This document shows, one piece after another, positions 1 through 14,900 of a stretch of DNA of 32,000 nt (the first letter of the stretch is position 1; every line of letters starts with the position of its first letter). The notes below the pieces were generated by a model that made no database searches, was not told the DNA's origin, and was given only the letters and a program-made list of their open reading frames with translations. This DNA is from Delftia acidovorans NBRC 14950 (GTDB taxonomy: Bacteria > Pseudomonadota > Gammaproteobacteria > Burkholderiales > Burkholderiaceae_C). The stretch covers positions 90,001 through 122,000 of the forward strand of contig NZ_BCZP01000004.1 of assembly GCF_001598795.1 (NCBI RefSeq), given 5' to 3'. The translations under genes were made by a program, and so were the position numbers.

Positions 1-883
1 CGTCCGGGCGCCGGCGCAGCAGGCCGGCCGGCGTGCCGGGGTCGATGGCCGGCGGCAGCTGCGGCAGGGCGGCAGGCGCATCCAGCGCGGCGATCAGCGC
101 CTCGGGCACCTGGCCCGTGAGCACGGCCAGCCGGTGCTGCGCCATGGCGATCTGCGCCTGCAGCGCGGGAATGCGCGAGCGCGTGGCCTCCAGCTGGGCC
201 TGGGCGCGCGCCAGGTCGAACTCGGTGCCGCTGCCGTGCGCCAGGCGCAGCTGCACCAGGCGCAGCGTGTCCTGCTGGTTGGCCGCATTGGCCTGCGCCA
301 AGGCCAGGCGCTGCTGCCAGCCGCGCAGGTCGGCGTAGCTGCCCGCCACCTGGGCCGCAATGGCCACCTGCAGGGCCGCCAGGTCGGCCGCATCGGCGCG
401 CAGGTCGGCATGCCGCGCCTCGATGCTGCGCCGCACGCGGCCGAACACGTCGATCTCCCAGCTCGCGGCCAATCCGGCGGTGTAGCTGCGCTGGCTGCGC
501 GGGCCATAGAAGGCCTCGCTCTCGCTGAGCTTTTGCTGCGTGGCCCGGCCCGACATCGTGATCGTGGGTAGCTGGTCGAAGCGGCTTTCGCGCAGCAGCG
601 CCTGGGCACCGTCCAGCCGCGCCAGCGCCACCTGCAGGTCCTGGTTGTCGCCCAGCGCGCGCTCCACCAGCTGCGTCAGCTGCGGGTCCTGGAACTGGCG
701 CCAGAAGGCGGCGTCAGGCTCGGCCTGGGGGGTGGCCGGTGCAGGCTCGGCCCGCGCGAACTGCGCTGCGGCCCGCGGCGCCGCAGGCGCCTTGAAGTCG
801 GGGCCGACCGCGCAGCCGCCCACCAGGGCGGCGGATGCCAGCGCCAGCGCGTGGCGGCTCAGGGACTTGCGTATCTCAGGCAT
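1..883 (-). CDS. RND efflux outer-membrane factor lipoprotein, NodT/OprN family (partial; 3' end outside the window)
   Basis: The reverse-strand frame is open from the ATG at 883-881 to the window edge. My translation is MPEIRKSLSRHALALASAALVGGCAVGPDFKAP...FWRQFQDPQLTQLVERALGDNQDLQVALARL... It has a lipobox (LVGGC) and a typical NodT-family N-terminus. The ATG overlaps the stop of the upstream RND gene (ATGCCTGA). The gene is missing from the ORF track because it is truncated by the window edge. Confidence 0.85.
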   Translation of the reverse strand, partial: MPEIRKSLSRHALALASAALVGGCAVGPDFKAPAAPRAAAQFARAEPAPATPQAEPDAAFWRQFQDPQLTQLVERALGDNQDLQVALARLDGAQALLRESRFDQLPTITMSGRATQQKLSESEAFYGPRSQRSYTAGLAASWEIDVFGRVRRSIEARHADLRADAADLAALQVAIAAQVAGSYADLRGWQQRLALAQANAANQQDTLRLVQLRLAHGSGTEFDLARAQAQLEATRSRIPALQAQIAMAQHRLAVLTGQVPEALIAALDAPAALPQLPPAIDPGTPAGLLRRRPD

Positions 884-3800
884 GTGGGGACTCCAGGGAG
901 GCGGGCTGGGCAGGCCCGGTGGAATGCGCAGGCGCATGCCCCGTCAGCGCGCGGCCCGAAAGCCGGCGCAGCGTGACGTAGAACACCGGCGTGAGGAACA
1001 GGCCGAACAGGGTCACGCCCAGCATTCCCGAGAACACGGTCACGCCCGTGGCCGCGCGCACCTCGCTGCCCGCGCCGCCACCGATGAGCAGGGGCACGGC
1101 CCCCGCGATGAAGGCGATCGAGGTCATGACGATGGGCCGCAGCCGCAGGCGGCAGGCCTGCAGCGCGGCATCGACGATGCCCACGCCGCGCAGCTCCAGC
1201 TCGCGTGCGAATTCCACGATCAGGATGGCGTTCTTGCAGGCCAGCCCCATCAGCACCACCAGGCCCACCTGCACGAAGACGTTGTTGTCGCCGCCGGCCA
1301 GCCAGACGCCGAACAGCGCCGCGCAGATGCACACGGGCACGATGAGGATCACGGCCAGCGGCAGCGTCCAGCTCTCGTAGAGCGCGGCCAGCACCAGGAA
1401 GACCAGCATCACGGCAATGGCGAAGACCACTGCCGCGGCGTTGCTCTGCTCCACCTGCTGGTAGCTCAGGTCGGTCCAGGCCAGCTCGATGCCGCGCGGC
1501 AGCGTGCGCTGCGCGATCTCCTGGAGCTTGGCCAGCACCTCGCCCGAGGACAGCACGCGCGGGTCGGAGTCGCCGATCAGATCGGCCGCCGGAAAGCCGT
1601 TGTAGCGCAGCACCGGGTCGGGGCCGAAGCTGGGCACCACGGTGACCATGGAGCCTATGGGCACCATCTCGCCGCGCGCATTGCGCGTGCGCAGACTGGC
1701 GATGTCCTCCACGGTCTGGCGGTGGTCCGCGTCGGCCTGCAGCATCACGCGCCAGACGCGGCCGAAGGCGTTGAAGTCGTTGACGTAGACCGATCCCAGG
1801 TAGGCCTGCAGCGTCTGGAACAGGTCGGTCAGCGCCACGCCCTGGGCCTTGGCCTTGGTGCGGTCCACCTTGACTTCCAGCTGCGGGATGTTGGACTGGT
1901 AGCTGCTGACCGGGTAGGTCATGCCCGGCGTTTTGGCGATCTCGGCCTGGAAGGCCTGCAGCGCCTGCTGCAGCGCCGCGTAGCCCAGGCCCGCGCGGTC
2001 CTGCAGGAACAGCGAGTAGCCCGAGCCGTTGCCCAGGCCCTGGATGGGCGGGGGCATCAGCGCATAGGCGAAGCCGCCCTCGATCTGCGAGAACTTCGCG
2101 CCCAGCTCGGCATTGATGGCCTCGGCGCTGCGCGTGCGCTCGCCGAAGGGCTTGAGCATGATGTAGGCGCTGGTCAGGTTGGGCGTGGTCGTGGACTGCA
2201 GCGCGTTGAAGCCCGCGAAGGCGGCGACCATGTCCACGCCTTCCACGCTTTTGGCGGCATCGACCATCTGGCGCGTGACCGCATCCGTGCGGTTCAGCGA
2301 AGCCCCCTCGGGCAGCTTGGCGCCGCCGAACAGGTACAGCTTGTCCTGCAGCGGAATGAAGCCGCCCGGCACGGCCTGGAACAGCACGGCCGTGCCCGCC
2401 AGCAGCGCCGCATAGACCGCGAACACCAGGCCCCGGCGGCGCAGCGAATGCCCCACCGAGTTCTGGTAGCCGTGGGCGCTGCGGTCGAAGAAGCGGTTGA
2501 AGGGCCGGAAGAGCCAGCCCAGGCTGCGGTCCAGCCCGCGCGCCAGCGGATCGCGCGGCGCGCCGCGCGGCTGCAGCAGCTTGGCCGCCAGCGCGGGCGA
2601 CAGCGTCAGCGAGTTGATGGCCGAGATCACCGTGGAGATGGCAATCGTCACGGCGAACTGCTTGTAGAACTGACCCGTCACGCCGCTGAGAAAGGCCATG
2701 GGCACGAAGACCGCGCACAGCACCAGGGCGATGGCGATGATGGGGCCCGAGACCTCCTTCATCGCCAGGTGGGCCGCCTCCAGGGGCGTGTGCCCTTCCT
2801 CGATGTAGCGCTCCACGTTCTCCACCACCACGATGGCGTCGTCCACCACGATGCCGATGGCCAGCACCAGGCCGAACAGGGTCAGCGTGTTGATGGAGTA
2901 GCCCAGCAGGTACAGCCCCGCGAAGGTGCCGACGATGGACACGGGCACGGCCAGCAGCGGAATGATGGAGGCGCGCCAGGTCTGCAGGAAGACGATGACC
3001 ACCAGCACCACGAGGATGACGGCCTCGATCAGCGTGCTCTGCACCGCCTTGATGGAGTCGCGCACGAAGACCGTGGGGTCCCAGACCGTCTCGAAGGCCA
3101 CGCCCTCGGGCAGGTCCTGGGACAGCTTGTCCATGGCCGCGTAGACCTGCTCGGCCACGCCCAGCGCATTGGCGCCGGGCGACAGGAAGATGCCGACGGC
3201 CGCCATGTTCTTCTTGTCGCTCCACGAGCGCAGCGTGTAGTCGCTGGCGCCCAGCTCGATGCGCGCCACGTCGGCCAGGCGCACGACCTGGCCGTCCGCA
3301 CCGCCCTTGAGCACGATGCTGCCGAATTCCTCGGGCGTCTTCAGCCGCCCGCGCACGTTGATGGACAGCAGCTTGTCCGCGCTCTGCGGACTGGGCTGCG
3401 CGCCCAACTGCCCGGCCGAGACCTGGATGTTCTGCTCGCGGATGGCGGCAATCACCTCGGGCGCCGTGAGCTGGCGCGCGGCCACCTTGTCCGGGTCCAG
3501 CCACACGCGCATGGCGTAGTCGCCCGCGCCGTAGATGCCCACGTCGCCAATGCCCGGAATGCGTGCCAGCACGTCCTTGATCTTGAGCGTGACGTAGTTG
3601 CGCAGGTACAGCGCGTCATGCTGGCCGTCCTGGGACACCAGGCCCACGTACATCAGAGGCGTGGACGACTGCTTTTGCGTGGTCACGCCGAACTGGCGCA
3701 CCTCCTCGGGCAGACGGCTCTGGGCCTGGCTGACGCGGTTTTGCACGCGCACGGCGGCCGTGTCGGGATCGACGTCGGGGCGGAAGGTGGAGACCACCTG

Positions 3801-4070
3801 CAGGCTGCCGTCGGACGCCGCGACCGACTTCATGTACATCAGGCCTTCGACGCCGTTGATGGCCTCCTCCAGCGGCACGGCCACCGACTCGGCGACCTCC
3901 TTGGGATTGGCGCCCGGATAGGTGGCGCGCACCACCACGCTGGGCGGCACGACCTCGGGATACTCGCCCACGGGCAGCTGCGGAATCGCGACCAGCCCCA
4001 CGGCGAACAGGATGATGGAGAGCACGACCGCGAAGATCGGCCGGTCTATGAAGAATTTGGAGAAGTCCAT
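876..4070 (-). CDS. RND multidrug efflux permease (HAE1 family, MexF-like), 1064 aa
   Basis: Part of track ORF 876..4304(-). The internal ATG at 4070 gives MDFSKFFIDRPIFAVVLSIILFAVGLVAIPQLPVGEYPEVVPPSVVVRATYPGANPKEV..., the canonical AcrB/MexF N-terminus. The length of about 1060 aa is typical. GGGAAG lies upstream of the ATG. Confidence 0.95.
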   Translation of the reverse strand: MDFSKFFIDRPIFAVVLSIILFAVGLVAIPQLPVGEYPEVVPPSVVVRATYPGANPKEVAESVAVPLEEAINGVEGLMYMKSVAASDGSLQVVSTFRPDVDPDTAAVRVQNRVSQAQSRLPEEVRQFGVTTQKQSSTPLMYVGLVSQDGQHDALYLRNYVTLKIKDVLARIPGIGDVGIYGAGDYAMRVWLDPDKVAARQLTAPEVIAAIREQNIQVSAGQLGAQPSPQSADKLLSINVRGRLKTPEEFGSIVLKGGADGQVVRLADVARIELGASDYTLRSWSDKKNMAAVGIFLSPGANALGVAEQVYAAMDKLSQDLPEGVAFETVWDPTVFVRDSIKAVQSTLIEAVILVVLVVIVFLQTWRASIIPLLAVPVSIVGTFAGLYLLGYSINTLTLFGLVLAIGIVVDDAIVVVENVERYIEEGHTPLEAAHLAMKEVSGPIIAIALVLCAVFVPMAFLSGVTGQFYKQFAVTIAISTVISAINSLTLSPALAAKLLQPRGAPRDPLARGLDRSLGWLFRPFNRFFDRSAHGYQNSVGHSLRRRGLVFAVYAALLAGTAVLFQAVPGGFIPLQDKLYLFGGAKLPEGASLNRTDAVTRQMVDAAKSVEGVDMVAAFAGFNALQSTTTPNLTSAYIMLKPFGERTRSAEAINAELGAKFSQIEGGFAYALMPPPIQGLGNGSGYSLFLQDRAGLGYAALQQALQAFQAEIAKTPGMTYPVSSYQSNIPQLEVKVDRTKAKAQGVALTDLFQTLQAYLGSVYVNDFNAFGRVWRVMLQADADHRQTVEDIASLRTRNARGEMVPIGSMVTVVPSFGPDPVLRYNGFPAADLIGDSDPRVLSSGEVLAKLQEIAQRTLPRGIELAWTDLSYQQVEQSNAAAVVFAIAVMLVFLVLAALYESWTLPLAVILIVPVCICAALFGVWLAGGDNNVFVQVGLVVLMGLACKNAILIVEFARELELRGVGIVDAALQACRLRLRPIVMTSIAFIAGAVPLLIGGGAGSEVRAATGVTVFSGMLGVTLFGLFLTPVFYVTLRRLSGRALTGHAPAHSTGPAQPASLESPHA

Positions 4071-4083
4071 GGTGCTTCCCGGT

Positions 4084-5298
4084 TCACTGCGCGGCCACGG
4101 CCGGCGCCTTGGCCACCGCCGCCTGCCCGTCGCCGGGAGCAGGCTTGGGGCTGATCGGCATGCCGGGGTAGTAGATGCGCTGCAGGCCGCCGACCACGAG
4201 GCGGTCGCCCGCCGCCAGCCCCTTGTCCACCACGCGCCGGCCATCGACCATGCGGCCCAGCTCCAGGTCGCGGCGCTCGGCCTTGTTGCCCTCGCCCACC
4301 ACATAGACGTACTTGCGGTCCTGGTCGGTGAGCACGGCCTTGTCGTCGATCAGCAGCGTCTGCCGCTCGCCGCCCACGCCCTGCGCGTCTTGCAGTTGCA
4401 CGCGCGCGAACAGGCCCGGCGTCAGCAAGCGGTCGGGATTGGGCAGGCGGGCGCGCATGCGCACCGTGCCCGTGCCCGCGTTGAGCTGGTTGTCGGTGAA
4501 GTCCAGGCTGCCCGCATGCGGAAAGCCTTCGTCGCCAGCCAGCCCCACACGCACGGGCCGCTGCACGCCGGGCCGCCCCTTGGTGTCCTTGGCGGCCTGC
4601 TGCTGCCGCAGGAAGCTGTGCTCGTCCGCATCGAAGTAGACATACACCGGGTCCTGCGAAACCACGGTGGTCAGCACGCTCTGGTCGGCCTGGGCCAGGT
4701 TGCCCACGGTGAGCAGGGCGCGGCCCGCGCGGCCGGAGACCGGCGCGCGTACCTCGGTGAAATCCAGGTTGAGCCGGGCTGCCGCCAGCGCGGCCTCGGC
4801 GGCGCGCACCTGGGCGGCGCTCTGGGCCAGGGCACCGGCGCGCGTATCGGCTTCCTCGCGCGAGACGGCATGCTCTGCCACCAGCTGGCGGGCGCGCTGG
4901 TCCTGGGTGCGGGCCAGCGCGGCGCCTGCGCGCGTGCGCTCCAGCTCGGCCTCGGCGCTGGCCAGGGCGGCGCGGTAGGGCCTCTGGTCGATCACGAACA
5001 GCAACTGGCCCTTCCTGACCTCCTGCCCCTCGCTGAAGGCAATGCGCTCGATATAGCCCGACACGCGCGGGCGCAGTTGGACCGACTCCACGGCATCGAT
5101 GCGGCCGTTGAACTCGTCCCAGACACGCACGCTGGTCGGCACGACCTCGCTCACCAGCACCTCGGGCGCAGGCGGCGGGCCGTCGCTGGCATGGGCATCG
5201 CCCACGGCCTGCGGGCGGCAGCCGGCAAGCAGGGCCAGCGCCGCCAGGGCGCCTCCGAACAGGGCACGCCGCAACGGCGGCGGTGGAAGAACGGGCAT
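4084..5298 (-). CDS. RND efflux periplasmic adaptor (membrane fusion protein, MexE-like), 404 aa
   Basis: Part of track ORF 4084..5421(-). The ATG at 5298 is preceded by AAGGAG. The N-terminus MPVLPPPPLRRALFGGALAALALLAGC is a lipoprotein signal. HlyD/MFP hallmarks are present (RPRVSGYIERIAFSEGQEVRKGQLLFVID, coiled-coil hairpin, LDFTEVRAPVSGR). The gene lies 13 nt upstream of the RND gene. Confidence 0.9.
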   Translation of the reverse strand: MPVLPPPPLRRALFGGALAALALLAGCRPQAVGDAHASDGPPPAPEVLVSEVVPTSVRVWDEFNGRIDAVESVQLRPRVSGYIERIAFSEGQEVRKGQLLFVIDQRPYRAALASAEAELERTRAGAALARTQDQRARQLVAEHAVSREEADTRAGALAQSAAQVRAAEAALAAARLNLDFTEVRAPVSGRAGRALLTVGNLAQADQSVLTTVVSQDPVYVYFDADEHSFLRQQQAAKDTKGRPGVQRPVRVGLAGDEGFPHAGSLDFTDNQLNAGTGTVRMRARLPNPDRLLTPGLFARVQLQDAQGVGGERQTLLIDDKAVLTDQDRKYVYVVGEGNKAERRDLELGRMVDGRRVVDKGLAAGDRLVVGGLQRIYYPGMPISPKPAPGDGQAAVAKAPAVAAQ

Positions 5299-5419
5299 GG
5301 ATCGACTCTCCTTGAGGGGGATGGGCAAGGCCCTGCTGCCGGGGCTGCGGCGGGGCCGGAAAAAGGGGCGGGACCGCAGGCTCTGGAGGCCTTCCAGGCG
5401 GTTGCTCACAATGGGTTGC

Positions 5420-5450
5420 ATTCTTCAAGTTCAAGTGAACTTGAAGTCAT
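5420..5450 (-). promoter_or_regulatory. SoxR-box (MerR-type) promoter reading toward the RND efflux operon
   Basis: The minus strand reads ATGACT-(19 nt)-AAGAAT. The spacer contains the palindrome TTCAAGT-nn-ACTTGAA (5430-5445), which is close to the E. coli soxS operator CCTCAAGTTAACTTGAGG. The box starts at position 5 of the -35 hexamer and ends 3 nt before the -10, the same geometry as the soxS promoter. A 19-bp spacer is the MerR-family hallmark. Confidence 0.6.
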
Positions 5451-5717
5451 GATCCGCGCGCAAAGACACCACGAAAATTGAGGACGGTTTGCCGGGGATA
5501 TCGCTGGCCGGATCGGACAAGCGCAGCGGCAATTGACCAGGAACGACCTGAGAAGACCTGGACAGGCGCGCACAGACGGACACACGCGCGTTGCCGCACC
5601 TGCAGGACGCCACCACTACACTGCAAGGCCATCTGACCCAGGGTGGCGGCCAGGTACCGCCAGAAACCGCCGACGAACGCCGACACCCTCCATGGAAAAG
5701 CACTGGATGCCTGCCGC

Positions 5718-8700
5718 ATGAATCTGCTTGCTCACGCCACACTGTCCCGGCCACAGGGACGCAACGAACGCATCAGCACCGTGAGGGTGCTGGCCCTGGA
5801 GATGCCGGGCGGCGACACCACGGCCACCGCAGCGCGCCATGTCGTGACCTTGCAGGTCACGCAATTGAAGGCCGGCGTCGTCGCGCAGGTCGATGACAGC
5901 ACGCTCACCCCCTTGCCCCAGGCGCTGGAGCCTGCACGCCAGCGCGCGCTGGCCTACCTGCGCCAGCGCCTGGGCGCGGGCGATGTGCTGCAGTCCCATG
6001 AGGGCTTTGCGGAGCTGGATGCTGAAGCAGGCCCGGCGCCCTCCCCCGGCCAGGCCCCGGGACAGGCCACGGTGCCGCCAGGCCTGTCGGAGTCGGCCTT
6101 GCAGGCCGGCGCCATTTCCGCCCTGTGCAAACGCCTGGACGGCAGCGCCTGGCGGCTGATGCCCTCGGGCCAGCAGGCCCGGCTGGTGTGGCGGCTGGCC
6201 GAGTATGCGGACCCCGCGCGCGGCGGCGCCGCCCAGCGCCTGCTGCATGCCCAGGTTCCACGCCTGGTGGCGCTGCTGGGCACGGGGGACGATCTGCTCG
6301 ACTACTGCCTGGCCTACCTCATCGGGCGCCTGGGCGATGGCGGCGCGGCGGTGGCCCTGCAGGCGCTCTCGCAACGCGGCACCAGCGAGGCCACGCGCGA
6401 TCTGGCGCACCAGGCCTGGCTGGCCCTGCTGGAGCCGCAGGAACGCCAGGCGGCGCTGCAGGAGTACCAGGCGCAGTGGGCCGGGATCCCCCCGCAGAAA
6501 AACGGCCCGAAAGAGGACGGACCGCAGGCCGAACAGGCCTTCTTCCAGGCACTTGGGCCACAGGCGCTGCTGGCGGCCGATGCGCTGGGCGCGCACGACG
6601 GCGCCATCCACCAGCAGCTGCTGGCCTGGATGGAGCGCATCCCCTTCACGCGCGCCTGGTGGCCGGCCCTGCGGCGCATCCACAAGCGTGCCGAGTGGCG
6701 GCGCGACCACGCCCTGCTGGCCGTGCTGCATGCGCGCTTCGATGGCCCGCGCGACGAGGGTGCCGTCTTCAGCCGCGACACCTCGCTGTACCTGCGCCTG
6801 CGCGGCTGGCGCCAGCTGCGGCGCATGGCCTCGGCCGACCACAGCGAAAGCGCCGCCCATGCCGCAGCCCTGCTCCAGGCCATGGACCGCTGCTGCGCGG
6901 GCCTGCCTGCCTCGCGCTCCGGCCGCCTGCCCGAATCGCGCTGGCTGCTCGCCGCCCGGCTGCTGCTGCCGCGCTGGCCGCAACTGCATGCCTCGGCCCG
7001 CGCCCACACCTGGTACACCGACGAGCCGCTGGACCTGCAGCAGCTGCCCGCGCAGCGCGTGGAAGGACTTTCGGCCATGTGGGACGCCCACCCCGGGCAA
7101 CTGCTGCAACTGGTGGGCCGTTCGCAGTCCACGCTGCTGCTGTGGTCGCTCACGCGCGCCCTGCAGGACCAGAAGGCCTTTCTGGACGGCCTGGATGCAG
7201 CGGCCACCGCGCCGCTGCTGCACAAAACCTATGCACCGGCGGCTGCGCTGGGCCTTCAGATCGCGCAGCAGCGCATGGTCTCGCTGACCGACGATGCGGC
7301 GCGCCGGCCCTGGCTGCTGGCGCTTGCGCAATGCGGCGACGGGCCTGCCGCCAGCTACCTGGGCGCCTGGCTGTCGCGTGACCGCGCAGGCGCCGCGCGC
7401 GATGCCGAACTGGTGGCCGCCCTGCTGCTGTCACCGGCCGCCAGCTCGCGCACCCAGGGCCTGGCCCTGCTGTTTTATGCCGATGGTGCAGCCGTGGCCC
7501 TGGCCTTGCTGGCGGCGCTGCCCACGCTGGACGCCGAAAGCCCCGCGCTGGCCGATATCCGCGATGCGGTGCAGGCGCTGTTCGATGGCAACGGCCCGCT
7601 GGCTGCGCAGGCCGCCAGCGTCCCGGCCCCACCGCTGCACCACCTGCTGGCGCATTCGGTGACGGCGCTGGTGGAGATGGCCACCGCCTGGCTGCTGGCA
7701 CACCCGCAGGGCCTGCGGACCCTGCCGCCGGCGGCGTTGCGCGGGCTGCTGGAATCCGAGGAACCTGCGCGCATGGCCTGCGGCATACGGCTCATGGGCA
7801 GCCTGGCCGATGACCTGCTGTGCGAGCAGGCCGCCATGCTGGCCGAATTCGCCGTATCGCCGCATGCCGCCTTGCGCGCAGCGGCAGCGCCCCTGGTCGA
7901 GCGCCTGGCCGGCACCCCCGTCTACAACACGCGCTGCAACGCCCAGATCGCCGAGCGCCTGCACGAAGTGCTGTTCCGCGCGGAAAAGGCCGAAGGCGTC
8001 CACGACGCGGCGCTGCGGCTGCTCACCGGCCCGCTGGCCGCCGTGGCCCCGGCCCGCGATGCCTCGGGCATCTGGCGCGCCCTGCAGGCTCAGGCCAAGG
8101 GCGCACAGCGCTACGGCGTCTGGGGCCTGAAGGCGCTGGACCTGCAGGTCTACACGCTGCGCCAGTGGTCCACGCTGGCCCGGCATGCCGATGCCGACGT
8201 GCGCGCCTTGAGCCGCCAGAGCATCGATGCGCAGCTCACCCCCATGGACCGGACCCTGCCCGAGCAGGCCGAACAGCTGCTGCCGCTGGCTGACGCCCTG
8301 TTTGCCGACACGCAGCAGTACGCACGCGAGATGTTCGGCCAGCGGCTGCCGGACGGCGCCCTGTCGCCGCAGCTGCTGCTCGGCTGGGTCGATCACGCCC
8401 AGCCCTGGGTGCAGGCCCTGGGCCGCCAGCGGCTCGCGCAGCACATGAGCGCGCCCGAGGCCAGCCTCTTCCTCACGCGCCTGGCCCAGCACCCCGCCAC
8501 CAGCGTGCAGCTGTTCGTCACGCAATGGCTGCTCGCCCTGCCCGACGAGCCCGCGCCGCAGCGCGCGGCGCGCCTGCAGGAGCTGCAGCCCTACTTCCTG
8601 GCCGTGCTCAGCCAGGTGCACCGCGCGCGCGCCAGCAAGACACGCGTGCTGCATTTCCTGCGCAGCCAGGTGCAGGCGCCCGAGACCGCCGCCGTGGTGG

Positions 8701-8861
8701 CAGCCATCTTTGCGCGGCAGGTGGTCAGCGCCAGCCATGCCGACCAGCCCGACTATGTGGCCGGGCTGCGCGACATCGTGCAGCGCCATCCCCAGCTGGC
8801 GCAAAGCTTCATGCAGCCCCTGGCGGCGGAGCGGCGCGGCCAGGCCCCGTCTTCAACCTGA
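5718..8861 (+). CDS. Large Ala/Leu-rich alpha-helical-repeat protein (ARM/HEAT-like by composition); putative retron accessory protein
   Basis: Track ORF 5643..8861(+) is a single uninterrupted 3.2-kb frame with high third-position GC. The antisense ORFs are Arg/Gly-rich junk. The start is uncertain: GTG 5643, ATG 5718 (chosen) or ATG 5802. I recognise no catalytic motif. The repeat-like helical character is inferred from composition only. The gene sits 31 nt upstream of, and co-directional with, the SWIM gene. Confidence 0.6.
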   Translation: MNLLAHATLSRPQGRNERISTVRVLALEMPGGDTTATAARHVVTLQVTQLKAGVVAQVDDSTLTPLPQALEPARQRALAYLRQRLGAGDVLQSHEGFAELDAEAGPAPSPGQAPGQATVPPGLSESALQAGAISALCKRLDGSAWRLMPSGQQARLVWRLAEYADPARGGAAQRLLHAQVPRLVALLGTGDDLLDYCLAYLIGRLGDGGAAVALQALSQRGTSEATRDLAHQAWLALLEPQERQAALQEYQAQWAGIPPQKNGPKEDGPQAEQAFFQALGPQALLAADALGAHDGAIHQQLLAWMERIPFTRAWWPALRRIHKRAEWRRDHALLAVLHARFDGPRDEGAVFSRDTSLYLRLRGWRQLRRMASADHSESAAHAAALLQAMDRCCAGLPASRSGRLPESRWLLAARLLLPRWPQLHASARAHTWYTDEPLDLQQLPAQRVEGLSAMWDAHPGQLLQLVGRSQSTLLLWSLTRALQDQKAFLDGLDAAATAPLLHKTYAPAAALGLQIAQQRMVSLTDDAARRPWLLALAQCGDGPAASYLGAWLSRDRAGAARDAELVAALLLSPAASSRTQGLALLFYADGAAVALALLAALPTLDAESPALADIRDAVQALFDGNGPLAAQAASVPAPPLHHLLAHSVTALVEMATAWLLAHPQGLRTLPPAALRGLLESEEPARMACGIRLMGSLADDLLCEQAAMLAEFAVSPHAALRAAAAPLVERLAGTPVYNTRCNAQIAERLHEVLFRAEKAEGVHDAALRLLTGPLAAVAPARDASGIWRALQAQAKGAQRYGVWGLKALDLQVYTLRQWSTLARHADADVRALSRQSIDAQLTPMDRTLPEQAEQLLPLADALFADTQQYAREMFGQRLPDGALSPQLLLGWVDHAQPWVQALGRQRLAQHMSAPEASLFLTRLAQHPATSVQLFVTQWLLALPDEPAPQRAARLQELQPYFLAVLSQVHRARASKTRVLHFLRSQVQAPETAAVVAAIFARQVVSASHADQPDYVAGLRDIVQRHPQLAQSFMQPLAAERRGQAPSST

Positions 8862-8892
8862 GCGCCGCAACAAGGCACGGAGTCGATCGGAC

Positions 8893-10620
8893 ATGGAATT
8901 TCGCTATCAGTACTACGGCAGCACGCAGGTCAACGACACGGCGGCCGAGCAGGCCTTCTCCTTCGCGCCCGACCTGCTGCGCCCACCCACACGCTTCGAC
9001 GGCCTGCTCCGGCGCGACGGCCCGGCCTACCTGCAGGTGCGCGAAGGGCTGTCCGCGCTGCACAGCGTGGTGGTCAGCGACCTGCGCACGCGCGGCCGCG
9101 ACAAGACGGCCTACCGCGAATGGCTGCAGGAGCACGAAGCGCAAATGCTCGCCACCTTCATGGCCGACACCGGCGGCGCCCAGGCGCGCGCCAAGGAAAT
9201 CAGCGCCGAACTCAAGAACCTGCGCGAGACCCGCAACCAAGTGCTCTCCCCCTTCTACAAGGCCCAGCGCAAGTACTTCGACTGGCTGTTCGTGGCCAAC
9301 CGCGATGCGTGGTATGTGCTCGACCCCGTGATCACCGTGCACCCGGACCGGCTGCTGTTCGAGGCCTTCAGCCAGGACGAATCGAGCTACTGCGCGGTCA
9401 GCATCCGGCACGAGGCCTTCGAGCATGCGGGCGAGCGCATCTGCGGCACCACCAACATCGATTACTCGGCCAGCCTCTACGAAGAATTCCAGAAGATCCG
9501 CAACTACCGGGACACGCGGCTGACGCTGGACCCGGCCGGCTTTGCCGTGCAGGTGGGCGGTGACCCCGCGCTGCGCGAGGAAAAGATCGACCTGCCCGAC
9601 AGCTGGCTGCGCGGCTTCGTGCAGGTCTCCAGCGCCATGGCCCTGCCCGCCACCGTGCTGGAGCTGCACCCCATGGACCTGTTCAACATCTGCGCGCGGC
9701 TGCGTGCCCGGCGCGAGCGCCACGGCCCGCGCGCGCTGCGCTTCGAGCTGGCGCCGGGACAGCCGCCCGCCGTGGTGTTCGAGCCCTGGGAGGAGCTCCT
9801 GGCCACCCGGCGCTCGCACGTCGTCAGCGATGCCATGGGCACGGGCGGCGGCACCATCCGCCTGTGGGGGCGCCGCCGCCTGCTCACGCTGGAGCGGCTG
9901 ATCTCCCAGGCCACGCGCGTGCGCGTGCACCTGCTGGGCAGCGGCATGCCCAGCTTCTGGGTGATCGAGCTGGGACTGGTCACGGTCACGCTGGGCCTGT
10001 CTGGCTGGAGCGCCAACGACTGGGCCGCCAGCGCACGCTTTCACCTGATGGCGCCGCAGGCCGAGGTCACGCCTGCCCAGGTCGAGGCCGTGGGCCGGCA
10101 GCTGCAGTCGTGCTGGCAGGCCGGCGCGCAGGATCTGGCCCAGGCCACGGGCCTGGCCCCGGCCCAGGTGCACACGGCCATGACACGCTGGATGCAGGCC
10201 GGGCGTGCGGTCTACGACCTGGACGCCGGGCGCTACGCCTGGCGCGAACTGCTGCGCGAGCCGCTGACGGCGCAGCAATTGCAGCCCGCCAACCCCGAGG
10301 AGGACAAGGCGCTGGCCCTGGTGCGCGGCAAGGCCATTGCCCCGCCGCGCATCGACCGCAAGGACGGGTTCAGCCGCATCACCGGCCAGATCCCGCGCGC
10401 CGACGGCAAGCGCCTGTTCGACACCCAGCTCGAACTCGATGCCGACGAGCGCCTGACCGATGCGCGCTGCAGCTGCAACCACTACCAGCAGTACCGGCTG
10501 CGCCAGGGGCCCTGCGAGCACATGATTGCGCTGCGCCTGGTGGCGCAGCCCCAGCTCGATGCCGCCCGCCAGCCGACCGGCCCGCAGATGAAGGCCGCAG
10601 GACAAGGAGAAATCGCGTGA
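8893..10620 (+). CDS. SWIM zinc-finger protein (WH-SWIM-like), 575 aa; putative retron accessory protein
   Basis: Part of track ORF 8710..10620(+). The ATG at 8893 (MEFRYQYYGSTQV...) has ACGGAG about 12 nt upstream. The C-terminus ...DARCSCNHYQQYRLRQGPCEHMIALRL matches the SWIM signature CxCxnCxH. Confidence 0.85.
   Translation: MEFRYQYYGSTQVNDTAAEQAFSFAPDLLRPPTRFDGLLRRDGPAYLQVREGLSALHSVVVSDLRTRGRDKTAYREWLQEHEAQMLATFMADTGGAQARAKEISAELKNLRETRNQVLSPFYKAQRKYFDWLFVANRDAWYVLDPVITVHPDRLLFEAFSQDESSYCAVSIRHEAFEHAGERICGTTNIDYSASLYEEFQKIRNYRDTRLTLDPAGFAVQVGGDPALREEKIDLPDSWLRGFVQVSSAMALPATVLELHPMDLFNICARLRARRERHGPRALRFELAPGQPPAVVFEPWEELLATRRSHVVSDAMGTGGGTIRLWGRRRLLTLERLISQATRVRVHLLGSGMPSFWVIELGLVTVTLGLSGWSANDWAASARFHLMAPQAEVTPAQVEAVGRQLQSCWQAGAQDLAQATGLAPAQVHTAMTRWMQAGRAVYDLDAGRYAWRELLREPLTAQQLQPANPEEDKALALVRGKAIAPPRIDRKDGFSRITGQIPRADGKRLFDTQLELDADERLTDARCSCNHYQQYRLRQGPCEHMIALRLVAQPQLDAARQPTGPQMKAAGQGEIA
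10468..10521 (+). other. SWIM zinc-finger motif C526-x-C528-x12-C541-x-H543 within the 8893-10620 CDS
   Basis: Codons TGC 10468, TGC 10474, TGC 10513 and CAC 10519 are in frame with the ATG at 8893. Confidence 0.8.
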
Positions 10621-10649
10621 CCCGCCTCAATTGCTCTACACTGCCACGC

Positions 10650-10876
10650 GGAGCGACGCGCAGGCTCTTGCAATCCGGGTGGTGTTTCGCCACCCTTGTG
10701 AACTGCCGTTTCATGCACCACGGGCGCCGTTTTCACTGTGCCACCCCAGCGACGGTATGCGTTTTCCTGAGTGGCTTGCCACAAGCGAAACACGCATACC
10801 GTCGCGGGGTGGCGTCGAGCGAACAGCTCCCGTCCCGTGAGCCCTGCGGGCTCTTCGACGAGAAGCGCGTCGCTCC
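10650..10876 (+). ncRNA. Putative retron msr-msd non-coding RNA (template/primer for msDNA)
   Basis: GGAGCGACGCGC (10650-10661) is the exact reverse complement of GCGCGTCGCTCC (10865-10876), like retron a1/a2 repeats. Between them are a hairpin at 10677-10695, a long imperfect hairpin at 10741-10812 (7+14+3 bp with two bulges) and a nested hairpin at 10813-10860. The element ends 51 nt before the RT ATG, and no credible ORF lies in the 307-nt spacer. The exact ends and the branching G are not determinable from sequence. Confidence 0.6.
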
Positions 10877-10927
10877 ATTTCTTTGCCCGCCGCACAGCGG
10901 CCGGGCCCGCCTTGCCGGGGTGGCCGC

Positions 10928-12904
10928 ATGAGCCAGCCGCAACCCACACGCGCCGAGATCTACGAGCGCATCAAGGCCTCCAGCAAACAGGAAGTCATCC
11001 TCGACGAGATGCAGCGCCTGGGCTTCTGGCCCAAGGGCGAGGGACAGCCGCAGCTGGCCGCCGCCCACATCCAGCGCGAGGGCGAGCTGCAGCGCGAGCT
11101 GGCCGAGCTGCGCCAGCAGATCGCCGTGCGCCAGAACCCCGAGCGCGCATTGCGCCAGATGCGCAAGGAGCGCATGCAAAAGGCGCTGGCCCAGCGCGAG
11201 GAAACCAAACGCCGCCAGGCCCAGGAGCGCCACGACAAGGCGCTGGCCTGGCATGCGAAGCGGGCCACGCACGTGGGCTATCTGGGCCCCGGCGTCTCCG
11301 CTGCCCTCCAGGGGCCGCAGGCCGGTGAGGCACCGCCTGCTGCCGGGGAACGCCGGCAGGCCGACCCGCAAAGGCTGGCCCGGCATGGCCTGCCGGAACT
11401 TGCCGATGCAGCGCAGCTGGCCGATGCCATGGGCATCACCGTGGCCGAGCTGCGTTTCCTGGGCTTTCACCGCGAGGTGGCCCGCACCCACCACTACCAC
11501 TCGTTCACCCTGCCAAAGAAGACCGGCGGCGAGCGGCTGATCTCCGCGCCCATGCCGCGCCTCAAGCGCGCGCAGTACTGGGTGCTGGACAACATCCTCG
11601 CCAAGGTGCCCGCGCACGATGCCGCGCACGGCTTCCTGGCCGGCCGCTCCATCGTGAGCAATGCCGCGCCGCATGCGGGCCACGACGTGGTCATCAACCT
11701 GGATGTGAAGGACTTCTTTCCCAGCATTGCCTTCGGCCGCATCAAGGGCGTGTTCTGTCATCTGGGCTATGGCGAGGCCATGGCCACCCTCCTGGCCCTG
11801 CTGTGCAGCGAAAACCGCGCCCAGGCCTGGCAGGTGGATGGCGAGAAGCTCTTCGTCGGCGGCAAGGCGCGCGAGCGCGTGCTGCCCCAGGGCGCGCCCA
11901 CCAGCCCCATGCTCACCAACCTGCTGTGCCGCCGCCTGGACCGCCGCCTGCTGGGCCTGGCCAGGCAGCTGGGCTTTGTGTACACGCGCTATGCGGACGA
12001 CCTGACCTTCTCCGCCTCGGGCGAGGCCGCGCGCGACAACGTGGGCCGGCTGCTGGGCCGCGTGCGCTGGATACTGCGCGACGAAGGCTTCACGCCCCAC
12101 CCCGACAAGGAGCGCGTGATGCGCAAGGGCCGCCGCCAGGAGGTCACGGGGCTGGTGGTGAACGCGGACAAGCCCGGCGTATCGCGCGAGACGCGCAGGC
12201 GCCTGCGCGCCGCCCTGCACCGCGCCACGCAGGCCAGCGCCGGCAAGCCGGCGCACTGGCAGGGGCAGGCAGCCCAGCCCTCGCAATTGCTGGGACTGGC
12301 GCAGTTCGTGTACCAGGTCGACCCCGTGCAGGGCGGTCCGCTGCTGGGCCAGGCCCGCCAGCTCACGCGCAGCCCCATCGACCGCGCCAACGATGCCCTG
12401 CTGCAGGCCAGCCGGCAGGACCGCGCGGCGGCGCGTGCGCAGCCGCCCGCAAGCGCACAGTTCCGGCGTCTGGCCGCCAGCGGGCAGGCGCCTGCGCTGG
12501 CCAGCGGCAAGACGTGGTGGCAGCCGGCCGAGCCGGCGGCACCCGTGATCGAGAAGACCGACCAGCAGCGGCGCGAACAGCGGCTGCAAGAGCGCGAGGC
12601 CGCACGCGCCCAGGCAGCTGCGGCCGCACGGCCGGCCGTGGACACGCCGCAGCAGCAGCCCGCACAGGCGCCGAGCCCCGACGCACAGGCACCCGGCCCA
12701 TCGCCGATGCCCGGCCTGCTGACCTACTGGGCGCAGATCGTGATCTGCTTCTTGCTGGGCACGGTGTTCCAGGCGCGCCTGATCACGCTGATCGGCATCG
12801 TGCTGGTCCTGCTCCTGCGCTACCGGCGCATACGGCGCTGGGATGTCTTTGCCGGTGCGATGGTGGTGGCCGTGCTGCTAGGCCTGGGGTTGCGGCTGTC
12901 GTGA
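10928..12904 (+). CDS. Retron-type reverse transcriptase with N-terminal coiled-coil-like extension and C-terminal transmembrane segments, 658 aa
   Basis: Part of track ORF 10883..12904(+), starting at ATG 10928 (MSQPQPTRAEIYERI...). RT motifs: HYHSFTLPKKTGGERLISAP, NAAPH (codons 245-249), NLDVKDFFPSI, LPQGAPTSP, YTRYADDLTF (YADD at 11990-12001) and RQEVTGLVVN (VTG at 12143-12151). NAxxH and VTG are regarded as retron-RT signatures. Confidence 0.88.
   Translation: MSQPQPTRAEIYERIKASSKQEVILDEMQRLGFWPKGEGQPQLAAAHIQREGELQRELAELRQQIAVRQNPERALRQMRKERMQKALAQREETKRRQAQERHDKALAWHAKRATHVGYLGPGVSAALQGPQAGEAPPAAGERRQADPQRLARHGLPELADAAQLADAMGITVAELRFLGFHREVARTHHYHSFTLPKKTGGERLISAPMPRLKRAQYWVLDNILAKVPAHDAAHGFLAGRSIVSNAAPHAGHDVVINLDVKDFFPSIAFGRIKGVFCHLGYGEAMATLLALLCSENRAQAWQVDGEKLFVGGKARERVLPQGAPTSPMLTNLLCRRLDRRLLGLARQLGFVYTRYADDLTFSASGEAARDNVGRLLGRVRWILRDEGFTPHPDKERVMRKGRRQEVTGLVVNADKPGVSRETRRRLRAALHRATQASAGKPAHWQGQAAQPSQLLGLAQFVYQVDPVQGGPLLGQARQLTRSPIDRANDALLQASRQDRAAARAQPPASAQFRRLAASGQAPALASGKTWWQPAEPAAPVIEKTDQQRREQRLQEREAARAQAAAAARPAVDTPQQQPAQAPSPDAQAPGPSPMPGLLTYWAQIVICFLLGTVFQARLITLIGIVLVLLLRYRRIRRWDVFAGAMVVAVLLGLGLRLS
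12725..12901 (+). other. Predicted hydrophobic (2-3 TM) C-terminal tail of the RT
   Basis: The C-terminal sequence is YWAQIVICFLLGTVFQARLITLIGIVLVLLLRYRRIRRWDVFAGAMVVAVLLGLGLRLS. It has three hydrophobic stretches separated by Arg-rich loops, and follows a Pro/Ala/Gln-rich low-complexity linker. Confidence 0.6.
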
Positions 12905-12909
12905 TGTTC

Positions 12910-12944
12910 GCGGGGCCGCAGGCCTCAGAGGCCTGCGGCCCCGC
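12910..12944. terminator. Bidirectional GC-rich hairpin between the convergent RT and AraC genes
   Basis: GCGGGGCCGCAGGCC (12910-12924), a TCAGA loop, then GGCCTGCGGCCCCGC (12930-12944) form a perfect 15-bp stem. It starts 6 nt after the RT stop and overlaps the last codons and stop of the AraC gene. There is no clear U-tract. Confidence 0.55.
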
Positions 12945-13758
12945 CCGCCACGGGTGCACTGCGCAGCGCCAGGAAGCGGCGCGGCGAGGTGCCCACCGCC
13001 TTGCGGAACATGGTCACGAAGGCGGGTGCGCTCTCGTAGCCCAGGGCATCTGCCACGGTCTGTATGCGCAGCCCCTCGGACAGCTTTTGCAGTGCGGTGA
13101 GCACATGCAGCTGGCGGCGCCACTGGTTGACCGTAAGCCCGGTCTCGGCCAGGAACAGCCGCGTCATGCTGCGCTCGCTCATGCCGATGCGCTGGGCCCA
13201 GTCGGCCAGCCGTGCCTGCAGCTGCGGCTGCTCGCACAGGGCGTTGGTCATGCGGCGCAGGCGCCGGTCGTGCGGCAGGGGCAGGTGCAGTCCTTCGGGC
13301 TGCGCCGCCTGGATCTCGTCGAGCAGCACCTGCATGAGCCGGCCATCGCCGCTGTCGGGCTCGTAGTCCTGCGGCAGACCCTGCACGCGGTCCAGCAGCG
13401 CACTGAGAAAGGGCGAGACGGCCAGCGCATGGCAGGGTCCGGGCACGGGGCGCACGGCCCCTGCCTCGACAAAGACCACGTAGCCGCTGGCCGCACCGCT
13501 GCAGCTGACCCGGTGCAGCGTGCCGCCCGGAATCCAGGCGGCGCTGCGCGGCGGCACCACGCAGACGCCCGCATCGGTCTCCAGCGTGATCAGCCCCGCA
13601 TGGGTGACCATGAGCTGGCTCTTGCGGTGGGCATGGAAGTTCATCCCCCAGTCGCCGGGGCCCGACCGCATGGGCAGGACGATCACGGGACGGTCCACAT
13701 GGTCGGGGTCCCACCTCTCGGGCAGGACTTTGAGCAGGGCTGAATCCACGGCATTCAT
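12925..13758 (-). CDS. AraC-family transcriptional regulator (N-terminal cupin-like sensor, C-terminal HTH), 277 aa
   Basis: Track ORF 12925..13758(-). The C-terminal region ...LADWAQRIGMSERSMTRLFLAETGLTVNQWRRQLHVLTALQKLSEGLRIQTVADALGYESAPAFVTMFRKAVGTSPRRF is a canonical AraC double HTH. Confidence 0.9.
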   Translation of the reverse strand: MNAVDSALLKVLPERWDPDHVDRPVIVLPMRSGPGDWGMNFHAHRKSQLMVTHAGLITLETDAGVCVVPPRSAAWIPGGTLHRVSCSGAASGYVVFVEAGAVRPVPGPCHALAVSPFLSALLDRVQGLPQDYEPDSGDGRLMQVLLDEIQAAQPEGLHLPLPHDRRLRRMTNALCEQPQLQARLADWAQRIGMSERSMTRLFLAETGLTVNQWRRQLHVLTALQKLSEGLRIQTVADALGYESAPAFVTMFRKAVGTSPRRFLALRSAPVAGGAAGL

Positions 13759-13789: not shown

Positions 13790-14173
13790 TCAATCGGACC
13801 CGAGCAGCTCCCGTGCACGCTGCTGCGCCTCCTCGGGGGAGGCCACCAGCAGCATGGGATAGCCCCAGGCCTTGCCGAACATCTGTGCGAAGGCCTCGGC
13901 CTCGGCGCGCTTTTGCGCATCGGGCTCGGCGTGGACCAGGGCGCGCACCAGGCTTTTGAGCTCGGGGCGGCGGGCCTTCATCCACAGCACGACCTGCTTG
14001 CGCTCCTCAGGTGAGCGCTCCTCCTGGGCCATGTCGCCGTCGCTGAAGAAGACAAAGGCCTGGCCGCGGGCCAGCAGGGCCGAGAAGTCCTCCAGCAAGC
14101 GGTCCACGGGCACGGCCTTGTCGCGCTCGTAGCCCATGCGGACCAGGGGAAAGCTGCTGCTGTCGATGTACAT
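13790..14173 (-). CDS. Hypothetical protein, 127 aa (no family recognised)
   Basis: Part of track ORF 13790..14458(-). The ATG at 14173 (MYIDSSSFPLVRMGYERDK...) has a strong GGAGG 6 nt upstream. Third-position GC is high. The gene lies 31 nt upstream of the AraC gene on the same strand and downstream of the second SoxR-type promoter. Confidence 0.6.
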   Translation of the reverse strand: MYIDSSSFPLVRMGYERDKAVPVDRLLEDFSALLARGQAFVFFSDGDMAQEERSPEERKQVVLWMKARRPELKSLVRALVHAEPDAQKRAEAEAFAQMFGKAWGYPMLLVASPEEAQQRARELLGSD

Positions 14174-14346
14174 GGAAACCTCCGGCCGATGCCATTCAAT
14201 ACAAATGAGACCCATTACTGTATGAATGAACGGCAGCTGCGTCATTGCAGCACTCAGCCAAAGAATTTCGCAGTCCGGCCAGGACGCTCGCATGGGCGGT
14301 ACAGACCCGGTTGCCCTGTTCCTGCGCTTTCGCTCAGAATGGCCGC

Positions 14347-14377
14347 ATTCTTCGAGTTCAAGTGAACTTGAAGTCAA
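14347..14377 (-). promoter_or_regulatory. SoxR-box (MerR-type) promoter reading toward orf127-araC, divergent from soxR
   Basis: The minus strand reads TTGACT-(19 nt)-AAGAAT with the palindrome TTCAAGT-nn-ACTTGAA at 14357-14372. It is nearly identical to the module at 5420-5450 and ends 20 nt upstream of the soxR ATG. Confidence 0.6.
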
Positions 14378-14396
14378 GCCACAAAGGAAAGCCACC

Positions 14397-14900
14397 ATGA
14401 AAACCGAGGATGATCCACTGCTCAGCATCGGCGACGTGGCGCAGCGCAGCGGGGTCAAGGCCTCGGCGCTGCGCTTTTACGAGTCGCTGAACCTGATCGA
14501 GTCCGTGCGCAGCGCCAGCGGCCACCGGCGCTACCACCGCTCGTCGCTGCGGCGCATCGCCTTCGTGGTGTTCGCCCAGCGCATCGGCTTCACGCTGGAG
14601 GAGATCGCCGAGCAGCTGGCCAAGCTGCCCAGCCGACATGTCCCCACGGGCGGGGACTGGCAGAAGATGTCGCGGGTCTGGAAGCAGCGGCTGGACGACC
14701 GCATAGGCGAGCTGCAGCGGCTCAGCGAGAGCCTGGACCAGTGCATTGGCTGCGGTTGCCTGTCGCTGCGCCACTGCGTGCTGCACAACCCCGGCGACCT
14801 GTGCGCACAGAACGGCCCGGGGCCGCGCCGCTGGCTGGGCGACCCGCCGCCCGTGGCCATGGGCGGGCCCTGCCCGGGCCACTGCCACGACGAAGGCTGA
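14397..14900 (+). CDS. soxR: Redox-sensitive transcriptional activator SoxR (MerR family, [2Fe-2S])
   Basis: Part of track ORF 14226..14900(+), starting at ATG 14397 after AAAGGAAAG. The MerR HTH is LSIGDVAQRSGVKASALRFYESLNLI. The SoxR cluster motif CIGCGCLSLRHC (CX2CXCX5C) is present. Confidence 0.9.
   Translation: MKTEDDPLLSIGDVAQRSGVKASALRFYESLNLIESVRSASGHRRYHRSSLRRIAFVVFAQRIGFTLEEIAEQLAKLPSRHVPTGGDWQKMSRVWKQRLDDRIGELQRLSESLDQCIGCGCLSLRHCVLHNPGDLCAQNGPGPRRWLGDPPPVAMGGPCPGHCHDEG

Follow-up and report, generated by a model that had tools for sequence, protein, structure and literature searches.

The 32,000-nucleotide stretch of Delftia acidovorans NBRC 14950 analysed here (contig NZ_BCZP01000004.1, positions 90,001 to 122,000; hereafter the window) carries, on the chromosome, all components of a type XIII retron as classified by Mestre et al. 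(2020; PMC7736814), and the reverse transcriptase (RT) of this retron ends in a hydrophobic tail that is real, conserved and selected. The genes are arranged in the order WGR/HEAT, SWIM/DEDE, msr-msd non-coding RNA (ncRNA) and RT, with the RT gene in last place (Table 1). Type XIII is defined by an RT of clade 10 (Mestre et al., 2020; PMC7736814), and the locus combines a clade 10 RT with a SWIM/DEDE gene, a WGR/HEAT-ARM gene and a contiguous msr-msd. A PADLOC-style call for the locus would be "retron XIII", which is a described family and not an orphan. The RT gave its best PADLOC match to RT_XIII (E value, 2.3e-175), followed by RT_other (1.6e-98), and Pfam RVT_1 matched residues 196–409 (E value, 7.5e-20). 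The preliminary description of this DNA, made from the letters alone, had called the product a retron-type RT of unusual architecture. The first part of that claim was borne out by these matches, and the product is practically certain to be a type XIII retron RT.

Table 1. Features of the type XIII retron in the window (nucleotide positions are those of the window; residues are those of the RT).
Feature	Position	Strand	Basis
WGR-like / HEAT-ARM repeat partner gene	5718..8861	+	PADLOC WGR_XIII
SWIM zinc-finger / DEDE-motif partner gene, 575 aa	8893..10620	+	PADLOC SWIM_XIII, Pfam SWIM
Retron msr-msd ncRNA gene	~10650-10876	+	Inverted repeat, fold, covariation
Type XIII retron RT gene, 658 aa + stop	10928..12904	+	PADLOC RT_XIII, Pfam RVT_1
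N-terminal extension, residues 1-140	10928..11347	+	RT_XIII profile, AlphaFold2, conservation
Canonical retron RT core (fingers, palm, thumb), residues ~149-470	11372..12337	+	Ec86 alignment, Foldseek, motifs
Conserved motif FRxLAAxGQAP...WWQPA...PV.E.T, residues 512-544	12461..12559	+	78-sequence alignment
Pro/Ala/Gln low-complexity linker, residues 568-593	12629..12706	+	Variable; predicted disordered
Hydrophobic helix H1 LLTYWAQIVICFLLGTVF, residues 597-614, predicted transmembrane helix 1, inside to outside	12716..12769	+	Hydropathy, AlphaFold2, conservation
Hydrophobic helix H2 LITLIGIVLVLLL, residues 618-630, predicted transmembrane helix 2 or second half of helical hairpin	12779..12817	+	Hydropathy, AlphaFold2
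Hydrophobic helix H3 VFAGAMVVAVLLGLGL, residues 640-655, predicted transmembrane helix 3, C-terminus outside	12845..12892	+	Hydropathy, AlphaFold2

The open reading frame (ORF) of the RT starts at ATG 10928 and has an in-frame alternative start at TTG 10883. The start peptide MSxPQPTRAE is kept in orthologues of six genera and the sequence upstream of it is not, so ATG 10928 was taken as the start. The HYHSFTLPKKTGGERLI motif begins near residue 189, and a regular-expression search located YADD at residues 355–358 (nt 11990–12001) and VTG at residues 406–408. The ratio of nonsynonymous to synonymous substitution rates (dN/dS) of the core was 0.11–0.23. An AlphaFold2 model built from a 78-sequence alignment had a mean predicted local distance difference test score (pLDDT) of 87 and a predicted template modelling score (pTM) of 0.71. 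When the full model was searched against the PDB with Foldseek, only RT cores were returned, and nothing on the extensions. The closest solved structure to the Delftia core was the Ec86 RT (PDB 7v9x, 7v9u and 8qbk), with approximately 31% identity; it was also the best fold match in the PDB, with a TM-score of 0.82 normalised to the target. The Ec86 RT (about 320 aa) lacks both a 140-aa N-terminal domain and a C-terminal extension, and it is paired with an effector of the NDT type.

Residue 11 of the Ec86 RT aligns with residue 149 of the Delftia RT, and the extra N-terminal segment is therefore approximately 140 aa long, not the 190 aa first proposed; it is long, charged and helical, as had been described. 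Residues 45–112 are 41% charged. AlphaFold2 placed helices at residues 8–17 and 20–30, which form a small head, and at residues 43–69 and 71–114, which are long and charged, are separated by N-P and in the model probably form an antiparallel helical hairpin. In Delftia, the motif EMQRLGFWP lies in the helical head, and YLGPGVSAAL follows the long helices, with a variable linker after it. An alignment of 32 type XIII RTs demonstrated that the extension is conserved across phyla, with the motifs EMxRLGFW near residue 28 and YLGxGVSxGL near residue 120; the tail-less type XIII relatives named came from Xanthomonadales, a firmicute (Paenactinomyces) and Myxococcales. Judged by these conserved motifs, the extension is more than a generic coiled coil. 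Its dN/dS of 0.12–0.29 is close to that of the RT core, and residues 1–141 alone matched PADLOC RT_XIII over residues 2–129 (E value, 2.8e-18).

An extended N-terminus of unknown function was noted for the myxococcal RTs of Mx162, Mx65, Sa163 and Ne144 in a review (Simon et al., 2019; PMC6868368), and these retrons have been placed in type XIII (Mestre et al., 2020; PMC7736814). The N-terminal extension is thus a hallmark of type XIII (clade 10) RTs that is already in the literature. The unusual architecture claimed at first does not hold for this part, which the RT_XIII model covers; the tail lies outside that model, and the architecture is less exotic than was supposed. No Pfam family covers the N-terminal extension. 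A match to Pfam fvmX5 ("FtsH ternary system domain X5"; E value, 0.0095) was rejected as coiled-coil-type noise, as only one of the 32 extensions matched. The linker between extension and core (residues ~128–150) tolerates insertions, such as a tandem AAPVG-type repeat in Delftia sp. PS-11 (L002) and an insert of about 100 aa in P0121. The extension probably makes contacts particular to type XIII, either with the ncRNA/msDNA (multicopy single-stranded DNA), which is unusually long, or with the partner proteins.

The C-terminal extension (residues ~480–658, approximately 180 aa) is composed of two helices, an FRxxAAxGxAP..WW motif, a helix at residues 545–567, a disordered linker and three hydrophobic helices. 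The Pro/Ala/Gln linker and the three hydrophobic stretches after it had been recognised in the preliminary description at nt 12725–12901, and the stretches were found at nt 12716–12892. In the 78-sequence alignment, F512, R513, A517, G519, P522, W531, P539, E542 and T544 are invariant or nearly so, and AlphaFold2 modelled residues 512–544 with a pLDDT of approximately 80–93 and without regular secondary structure. The peptide FRxxAAxGxAP...WWxP may serve to dock the HEAT/ARM partner, or it may act at the membrane interface. Some relatives (P0133, P0134, P0139, P0141, P0146 and P0262) end in a Trp-rich peptide that resembles the WW motif, with forms such as KKWWKLF, KWWEFWKW and SWWKFW. The segment around the linker is less constrained: residues 546–597 have a mean identity to orthologues of 32%, length differences and a dN/dS of 0.25–0.88, and the pLDDT falls below 50 at residues 575–589. 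No PADLOC or Pfam model matched the C-terminal 191 residues, apart from PRIMA1 with an E value of 0.07, and the PADLOC RT_XIII and Pfam models thus leave the extension and its WW motif uncovered.

The three helices H1, H2 and H3 are free of charged residues over 18, 13 and 16 residues, respectively. QAR lies between H1 and H2, and the basic loop RYRRIRRWD (residues 631–639; nt 12818–12844), which holds five Lys and Arg residues, lies between H2 and H3. AlphaFold2 predicted tail helices at residues 594–614, 617–632 and 638–657 (21, 16 and 20 residues), with block means of pLDDT between 84 and 93. The Kyte-Doolittle mean over 19 residues exceeded 1.6 only in the tail, where it reached 2.30; the maximum elsewhere in the RT was 1.52.

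To place these extensions among relatives, three sources were used. A homologue search with the RT of the window gave only near-identical Delftia proteins, and diversity was obtained from 50%-identity representatives, a genome scan and a profile search. The genome scan yielded 10 full-length orthologues from Delftia, Comamonas, Diaphorobacter, Lampropedia, Xenophilus and Cupriavidus, and all three hydrophobic segments were kept in each of them. The profile search added 112 relatives, with Variovorax, Massilia, Janthinobacterium, Pseudoduganella and Hahella among the names; one to three C-terminal hydrophobic segments were present in 111 of these (three segments in 61, two in 44 and one in six). 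Such retention of the hydrophobic pattern is more than chance would give. High-GC genomes yield many long spurious ORFs, and this would favour an annotation or assembly artefact, namely a wrong start codon with the true start at an internal Met for the N-terminus, and a frameshift, read-through or gene fusion absent elsewhere for the C-terminus. The evidence runs the other way at both ends. Besides the conserved start peptide, more than 100 near-identical Delftia proteins or sequence clusters from independent assemblies agree on a product of 658 aa. Across genera, the tail is conserved with a dN/dS of 0.13–0.64, which indicates purifying selection, and the G + C content at third codon positions (GC3) stays at 0.82–0.95 through the tail up to the stop codon, so its frame is coding. 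The artefact explanation is effectively refuted.

Charge distribution points to a membrane location of the tail. Among 71 relatives with three segments, the loop between H2 and H3 has a mean of 2.96 Lys and Arg residues, compared with 1.23 in the loop between H1 and H2, and 94% of these tails follow a positive-inside pattern with the N-terminus cytoplasmic and the C-terminus outside. We consider it likely that the tail is membrane-embedded. Several points weigh against this. The transmembrane and coiled-coil assignments were made from hydropathy, the distribution of charge, conservation and the secondary structure given by AlphaFold2. H2 has just 13 uninterrupted hydrophobic residues, and simple Hessa-scale sums are borderline at approximately +0.3 to +1 kcal/mol; because of this, H1 and H2 could form a re-entrant hairpin instead of two full spans. 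The number of spans is accordingly uncertain, at two or three, or a hairpin. Some polar and basic positions of the tail are also conserved, including a Gln in H1 and a basic stretch with a Trp before H3, and these could mean a function beyond anchoring.

The short H2 and the borderline insertion sums would also fit a tail that lies outside the membrane, where the three helices form a hydrophobic module that packs on the HEAT/ARM partner or drives oligomerisation of the RT. HEAT/ARM proteins bind helices and extended peptides. In addition, the RT has been found to co-evolve with the HEAT protein (Mestre et al., 2020; PMC7736814). Such a module is nevertheless very unlikely here, given that charge-free runs of 13–18 residues are flanked by Arg/Lys clusters with the positive-inside pattern described above, that some relatives end in one hydrophobic helix of the kind typical of tail anchors and one or more carry an RDD membrane domain, and that the stretch before the helices is a disordered linker that varies in length, as a tether would. 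A PEP-CTERM or sortase-like sorting signal, in which a transmembrane segment is combined with a basic C-terminus, was also considered and rejected, as the protein has no N-terminal signal peptide and the catalytic domain would need cytoplasmic deoxynucleoside triphosphates.

The distribution of the tail was resolved with the best 150 representatives at 50% identity. Ordinary type XIII RTs among them end approximately 125 residues past YADD, and long C-termini that bear hydrophobic segments occur mainly among the approximately 35 closest representatives. A rough neighbour-joining tree of RT cores grouped the C-terminal extensions in a single subclade of about 26 leaves, and only two lay outside it. 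Alignment with other retron RTs had been proposed as a check of clade-specificity; in these comparisons, the N-terminal extension is type XIII-wide, and the tail is confined to essentially one subclade. Within the tailed subclade, the C-terminus varies from a single terminal helix to two helices with a basic end, three helices or five segments; in other members of the subclade, the extension is short and finishes with a Trp-rich peptide, e.g., KKWWKLF. P0136 has about five hydrophobic segments, and larger C-terminal membrane modules are also found in P0127, P0131, P0137 and P0140. The last three end in an RDD-like ...GTRVV peptide; Pfam RDD matched P0137 above the cut-off and P0131 just below it, and did not match P0140. 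Some distant type XIII-like RTs (P0176, P0178, P0185, P0210 and P0237) carry one to four hydrophobic segments at the N-terminus instead, which suggests independent acquisitions of membrane attachment. Since the C-termini of the subclade vary and distant RTs carry N-terminal segments, membrane association seems to have been selected repeatedly, in different forms.

The three-helix tail is apparently an undescribed feature of one type XIII RT subclade with a wide distribution in Burkholderiales. Transmembrane segments on type XIII RTs are not mentioned in Mestre et al. (2020; PMC7736814), Millman et al. (2020; bioRxiv 10.1101/2020.06.21.156273), the 2026 SPIRE survey or the literature returned by full-text searches, the coverage of which is limited and does not amount to proof. 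Literature searches for a type XIII structure returned nothing relevant.

The partner genes are those described for type XIII, in which cluster 216 encodes a WGR-like/HEAT-ARM protein and cluster 114_1 a protein with a DEDE motif, a winged helix and a C-terminal SWIM domain (Mestre et al., 2020; PMC7736814). The first partner ORF opens at GTG 5643 and comprises 1072 aa, of which residues 26–1057 matched PADLOC WGR_XIII (E value, 9.4e-216); weaker matches to HEAT-ARM_XIII were also obtained. The start of this alignment indicates ATG 5718 as the likely start codon. The Delftia protein gave no Pfam match and no match in a PDB sequence search; its equivalents in Hahella and Massilia give HEAT_2 matches. 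The second partner matched SWIM_XIII in PADLOC (E value, 2.1e-202) and SWIM in Pfam (E value, 2.6e-5), with ATG 8893 as the likely start from the alignment offset, and a PDB sequence search returned no match. It contains CxCx12CxH at residue 526 and a DEDE-like Dx7Dx4E...D...E motif from D144; both the CxCx12CxH finger and the DEDE motif have been described for cluster 114_1 (Mestre et al., 2020; PMC7736814).

This arrangement is maintained among relatives. The order HEAT, SWIM, ncRNA and RT is kept in Delftia, Comamonas, Diaphorobacter, Lampropedia and Xenophilus, and Massilia and Hahella have the same order of HEAT gene, SWIM-like gene, gap and RT. The WGR/HEAT gene is kept upstream of the RT in loci L001–L009 and L011, and the SWIM/DEDE gene in all orthologous loci. 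Both partners are retained in every tailed locus examined, including the Hahella version with a single transmembrane segment.

The ncRNA occupies the 307-nt gap between the SWIM and RT genes and spans approximately 227 nt. Its a2 and a1 arms (10650–10661 and 10865–10876) form a perfect 12-nt inverted repeat, 203 nt apart, and enclose an msr hairpin at approximately 10677–10696 and a long msd hairpin at 10720–10833 (approximately 115 nt). The minimum free energy of the fold is −129.9 kcal/mol, with a z score of −7.4 against shuffled sequences. In eight orthologous loci, compensatory double changes were found in 22 of 86 consensus pairs, including pairs of the a1/a2 stem and of the distal msd stem. 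The probable priming G is G10663, which follows the 5′ arm in the context CAGG, by analogy with the context CAGC reported for Mx162 and Sa163 (Simon et al., 2019; PMC6868368). Rfam gave no retron ncRNA family, either at gathering thresholds over the whole window or in E-value mode over 10580–10940, and its matches to MIR6425 and c4-a1b1 were rejected as chance. Just upstream of the a2 arm, ATTGCxCTACAC(T) (10631–10649, + strand) is conserved across genera. TACACT at 10637–10642, 7 nt before 10650, could be a −10 element of an msr promoter, without a full sigma-70 site in the consensus scan. That promoter and terminator scan, which covered 5300–13200, found no sigma-70 site and no convincing terminator.

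Taken together, these features suggest how the system may work. The RT would use the 2′-OH of G10663 as primer and copy the msd into msDNA of approximately 150 nt. The three helices would insert into the inner membrane in an N-in/C-out orientation, with the catalytic domain in the cytoplasm and the basic H2–H3 loop on the cytoplasmic face. The RT–msDNA complex would then be tethered to the membrane via a flexible linker of approximately 25–50 residues, and the HEAT and SWIM proteins would presumably be located there with it. The tail would serve as a localisation device and not as a killing module, and the effector role would lie with the nuclease-like SWIM/DEDE protein and the HEAT partner. 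We regard this whole, a type XIII RT with an inner-membrane anchor and with its partners as effectors, as somewhat more probable than otherwise. One point against it is that no experimental study of type XIII function was found in the literature searched; we infer both the effector role of the SWIM and HEAT proteins and the localising role of the tail.

The preliminary description had instead suggested that the RT might be its own effector. In such a mechanism, perturbation of the RT–msDNA complex, e.g., by a phage, would cause the helices to oligomerise and permeabilise the inner membrane, by analogy with the two-transmembrane (2TM) protein of Ec48. The defence of Ec48 needs its 2TM protein, and transmembrane effectors are common in abortive infection (Millman et al., 2020; bioRxiv 10.1101/2020.06.21.156273). 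The purifying selection on the tail and its moderately conserved polar and aromatic positions, W..L..Q in H1 and a basic stretch with W..F...M at H3, would also be consistent with an effector. We nevertheless consider an effector function of the tail, whole or partial, unlikely, and favour the anchor, because none of the tailed loci examined has lost the SWIM or the HEAT gene, the membrane segments vary in number and kind, and the tail matches no PADLOC effector model. The two retained partners are treated as an associated, putative effector module by Mestre et al. (2020; PMC7736814), and a tail that ranges from one C-terminal helix to five segments or an RDD domain is hard to fit to one specific pore. 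In addition, the Delftia RT does not belong to the type IV clade.

A stronger version of the anchoring model can be formulated, which we consider speculative and rather doubtful. According to it, a large, mainly Burkholderiales subclade of type XIII would make and hold msDNA at the inner membrane on an integral-membrane RT, and the tether would be mechanistically essential, beyond serving as a passive address label. It would perhaps link the state of the msDNA to the integrity of the membrane, the tail being a latent pore, or position the SWIM/DEDE nuclease and the HEAT scaffold where phage DNA enters, and FRxxAAxGxAP..WW would be the docking site for HEAT/ARM.

The chromosomal surroundings bear on the biological role of the retron. 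In D. acidovorans, D. tsuruhatensis and a Comamonas metagenome-assembled genome (MAG), the locus lies between a resistance-nodulation-division (RND) efflux membrane-fusion (HlyD-type) gene and an AraC-family gene. The flanking genes differ in Diaphorobacter, C. composti, Lampropedia, Xenophilus, Hahella and Massilia, so the 7-kb cassette has moved. These observations were weighed for the possibility that the retron, including its tether, is a domesticated and vertically inherited housekeeping element and not a phage defence system. It might then act, e.g., in a membrane-proximal DNA/RNA transaction or a stress response, with the tail placing the RT at its site of action. Type XIII correlates with host 16S (0.78), and domestication has been suggested (Mestre et al., 2020; PMC7736814). 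The shared site in the three genomes above, the occurrence of the 658-aa RT in more than 100 Delftia-derived sequence clusters and the finding that no mobile-element genes adjoin the retron within the window point in the same direction. The different flanks in other genera argue against it, and a DEDE nuclease-like partner fits a conflict system. Moreover, to our knowledge, every retron type whose function has been tested acts in defence against phages. We judge domestication improbable; it concerns the biological role and is compatible with the anchoring mechanism.

Upstream of the retron, the RND efflux pump occupies 876–5421 on the − strand, with an AcrB-family protein at 876–4304 and the HlyD-type membrane-fusion protein at 4084–5421; this neighbour was seen in L001, L003 and L007 (D. 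acidovorans, D. tsuruhatensis and the Comamonas MAG) and not in other genera. Downstream, the RT gene stops at 12904, and a convergent AraC-family gene (12925–13758, −) ends 20 nt away, which leaves no room for an intergenic terminator after the RT. No separate small transmembrane gene lies downstream of the RT, where the convergent AraC-family gene comes first. Between the AraC-family gene and a MerR-family gene (14226–14900) lies a 222-aa ORF (13790–14458, −) that matched neither Pfam nor PADLOC; in DNA of such high G + C content, it may be spurious.

Mx162, the first retron to be discovered, belongs to type XIII. A membrane anchor conserved on the RTs of a whole subclade would provide a testable clue to where type XIII systems act. 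It is also of practical relevance: if RTs of this subclade were expressed for msDNA production or genome editing, the full-length enzymes would be membrane proteins, and truncation at approximately residues 480–570 may be needed. In a recent metagenome survey, type XIII ranked with the more abundant retron groups and had the broadest taxonomic range (SPIRE preprint).

The closest known systems are the type XIII retrons, including Retron-Mxa1 (Mx162), Mxa2 (Mx65), Sau1 (Sa163) and Nex2 (Ne144). They share with the Delftia retron an RT_XIII match over extension and core, an extended N-terminus, and genes for the WGR/HEAT-ARM and winged-helix/DEDE/SWIM proteins. In both, the RT is directly preceded by a long msr-msd, which spans approximately 227 nt in Delftia compared with a 241-nt primary transcript in Mx162, and the priming G stands in a CAG context. 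The Delftia RT differs from ordinary type XIII RTs by a further 180 aa or so with the WW motif, the disordered linker and the three hydrophobic helices, and its host is a betaproteobacterium. The type IV retron Ec48 (Retron-Eco6) is likewise associated with transmembrane helices, and a membrane-acting component would be a possible analogy. In Ec48, however, the transmembrane protein has a gene of its own and a signal peptide, and the RT belongs to clade 3, whereas in Delftia the helices form part of a clade 10 RT. The Delftia locus has neither the clade 3 RT nor the separate signal-peptide/2TM gene that mark type IV; its tail has no detectable similarity to PADLOC effector models, and other candidate effector genes are present. 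The same principle of C-terminal fusion is found in the RT-Toprim of type I-C Ec67, the RT-protease of type XI, the RT-TIR of type XII and the RT-DUF3800 of type VII-A1. The modules fused in those types are soluble enzymatic effectors that replace a separate effector gene, whereas in Delftia a membrane segment has been fused and the partner genes remain.

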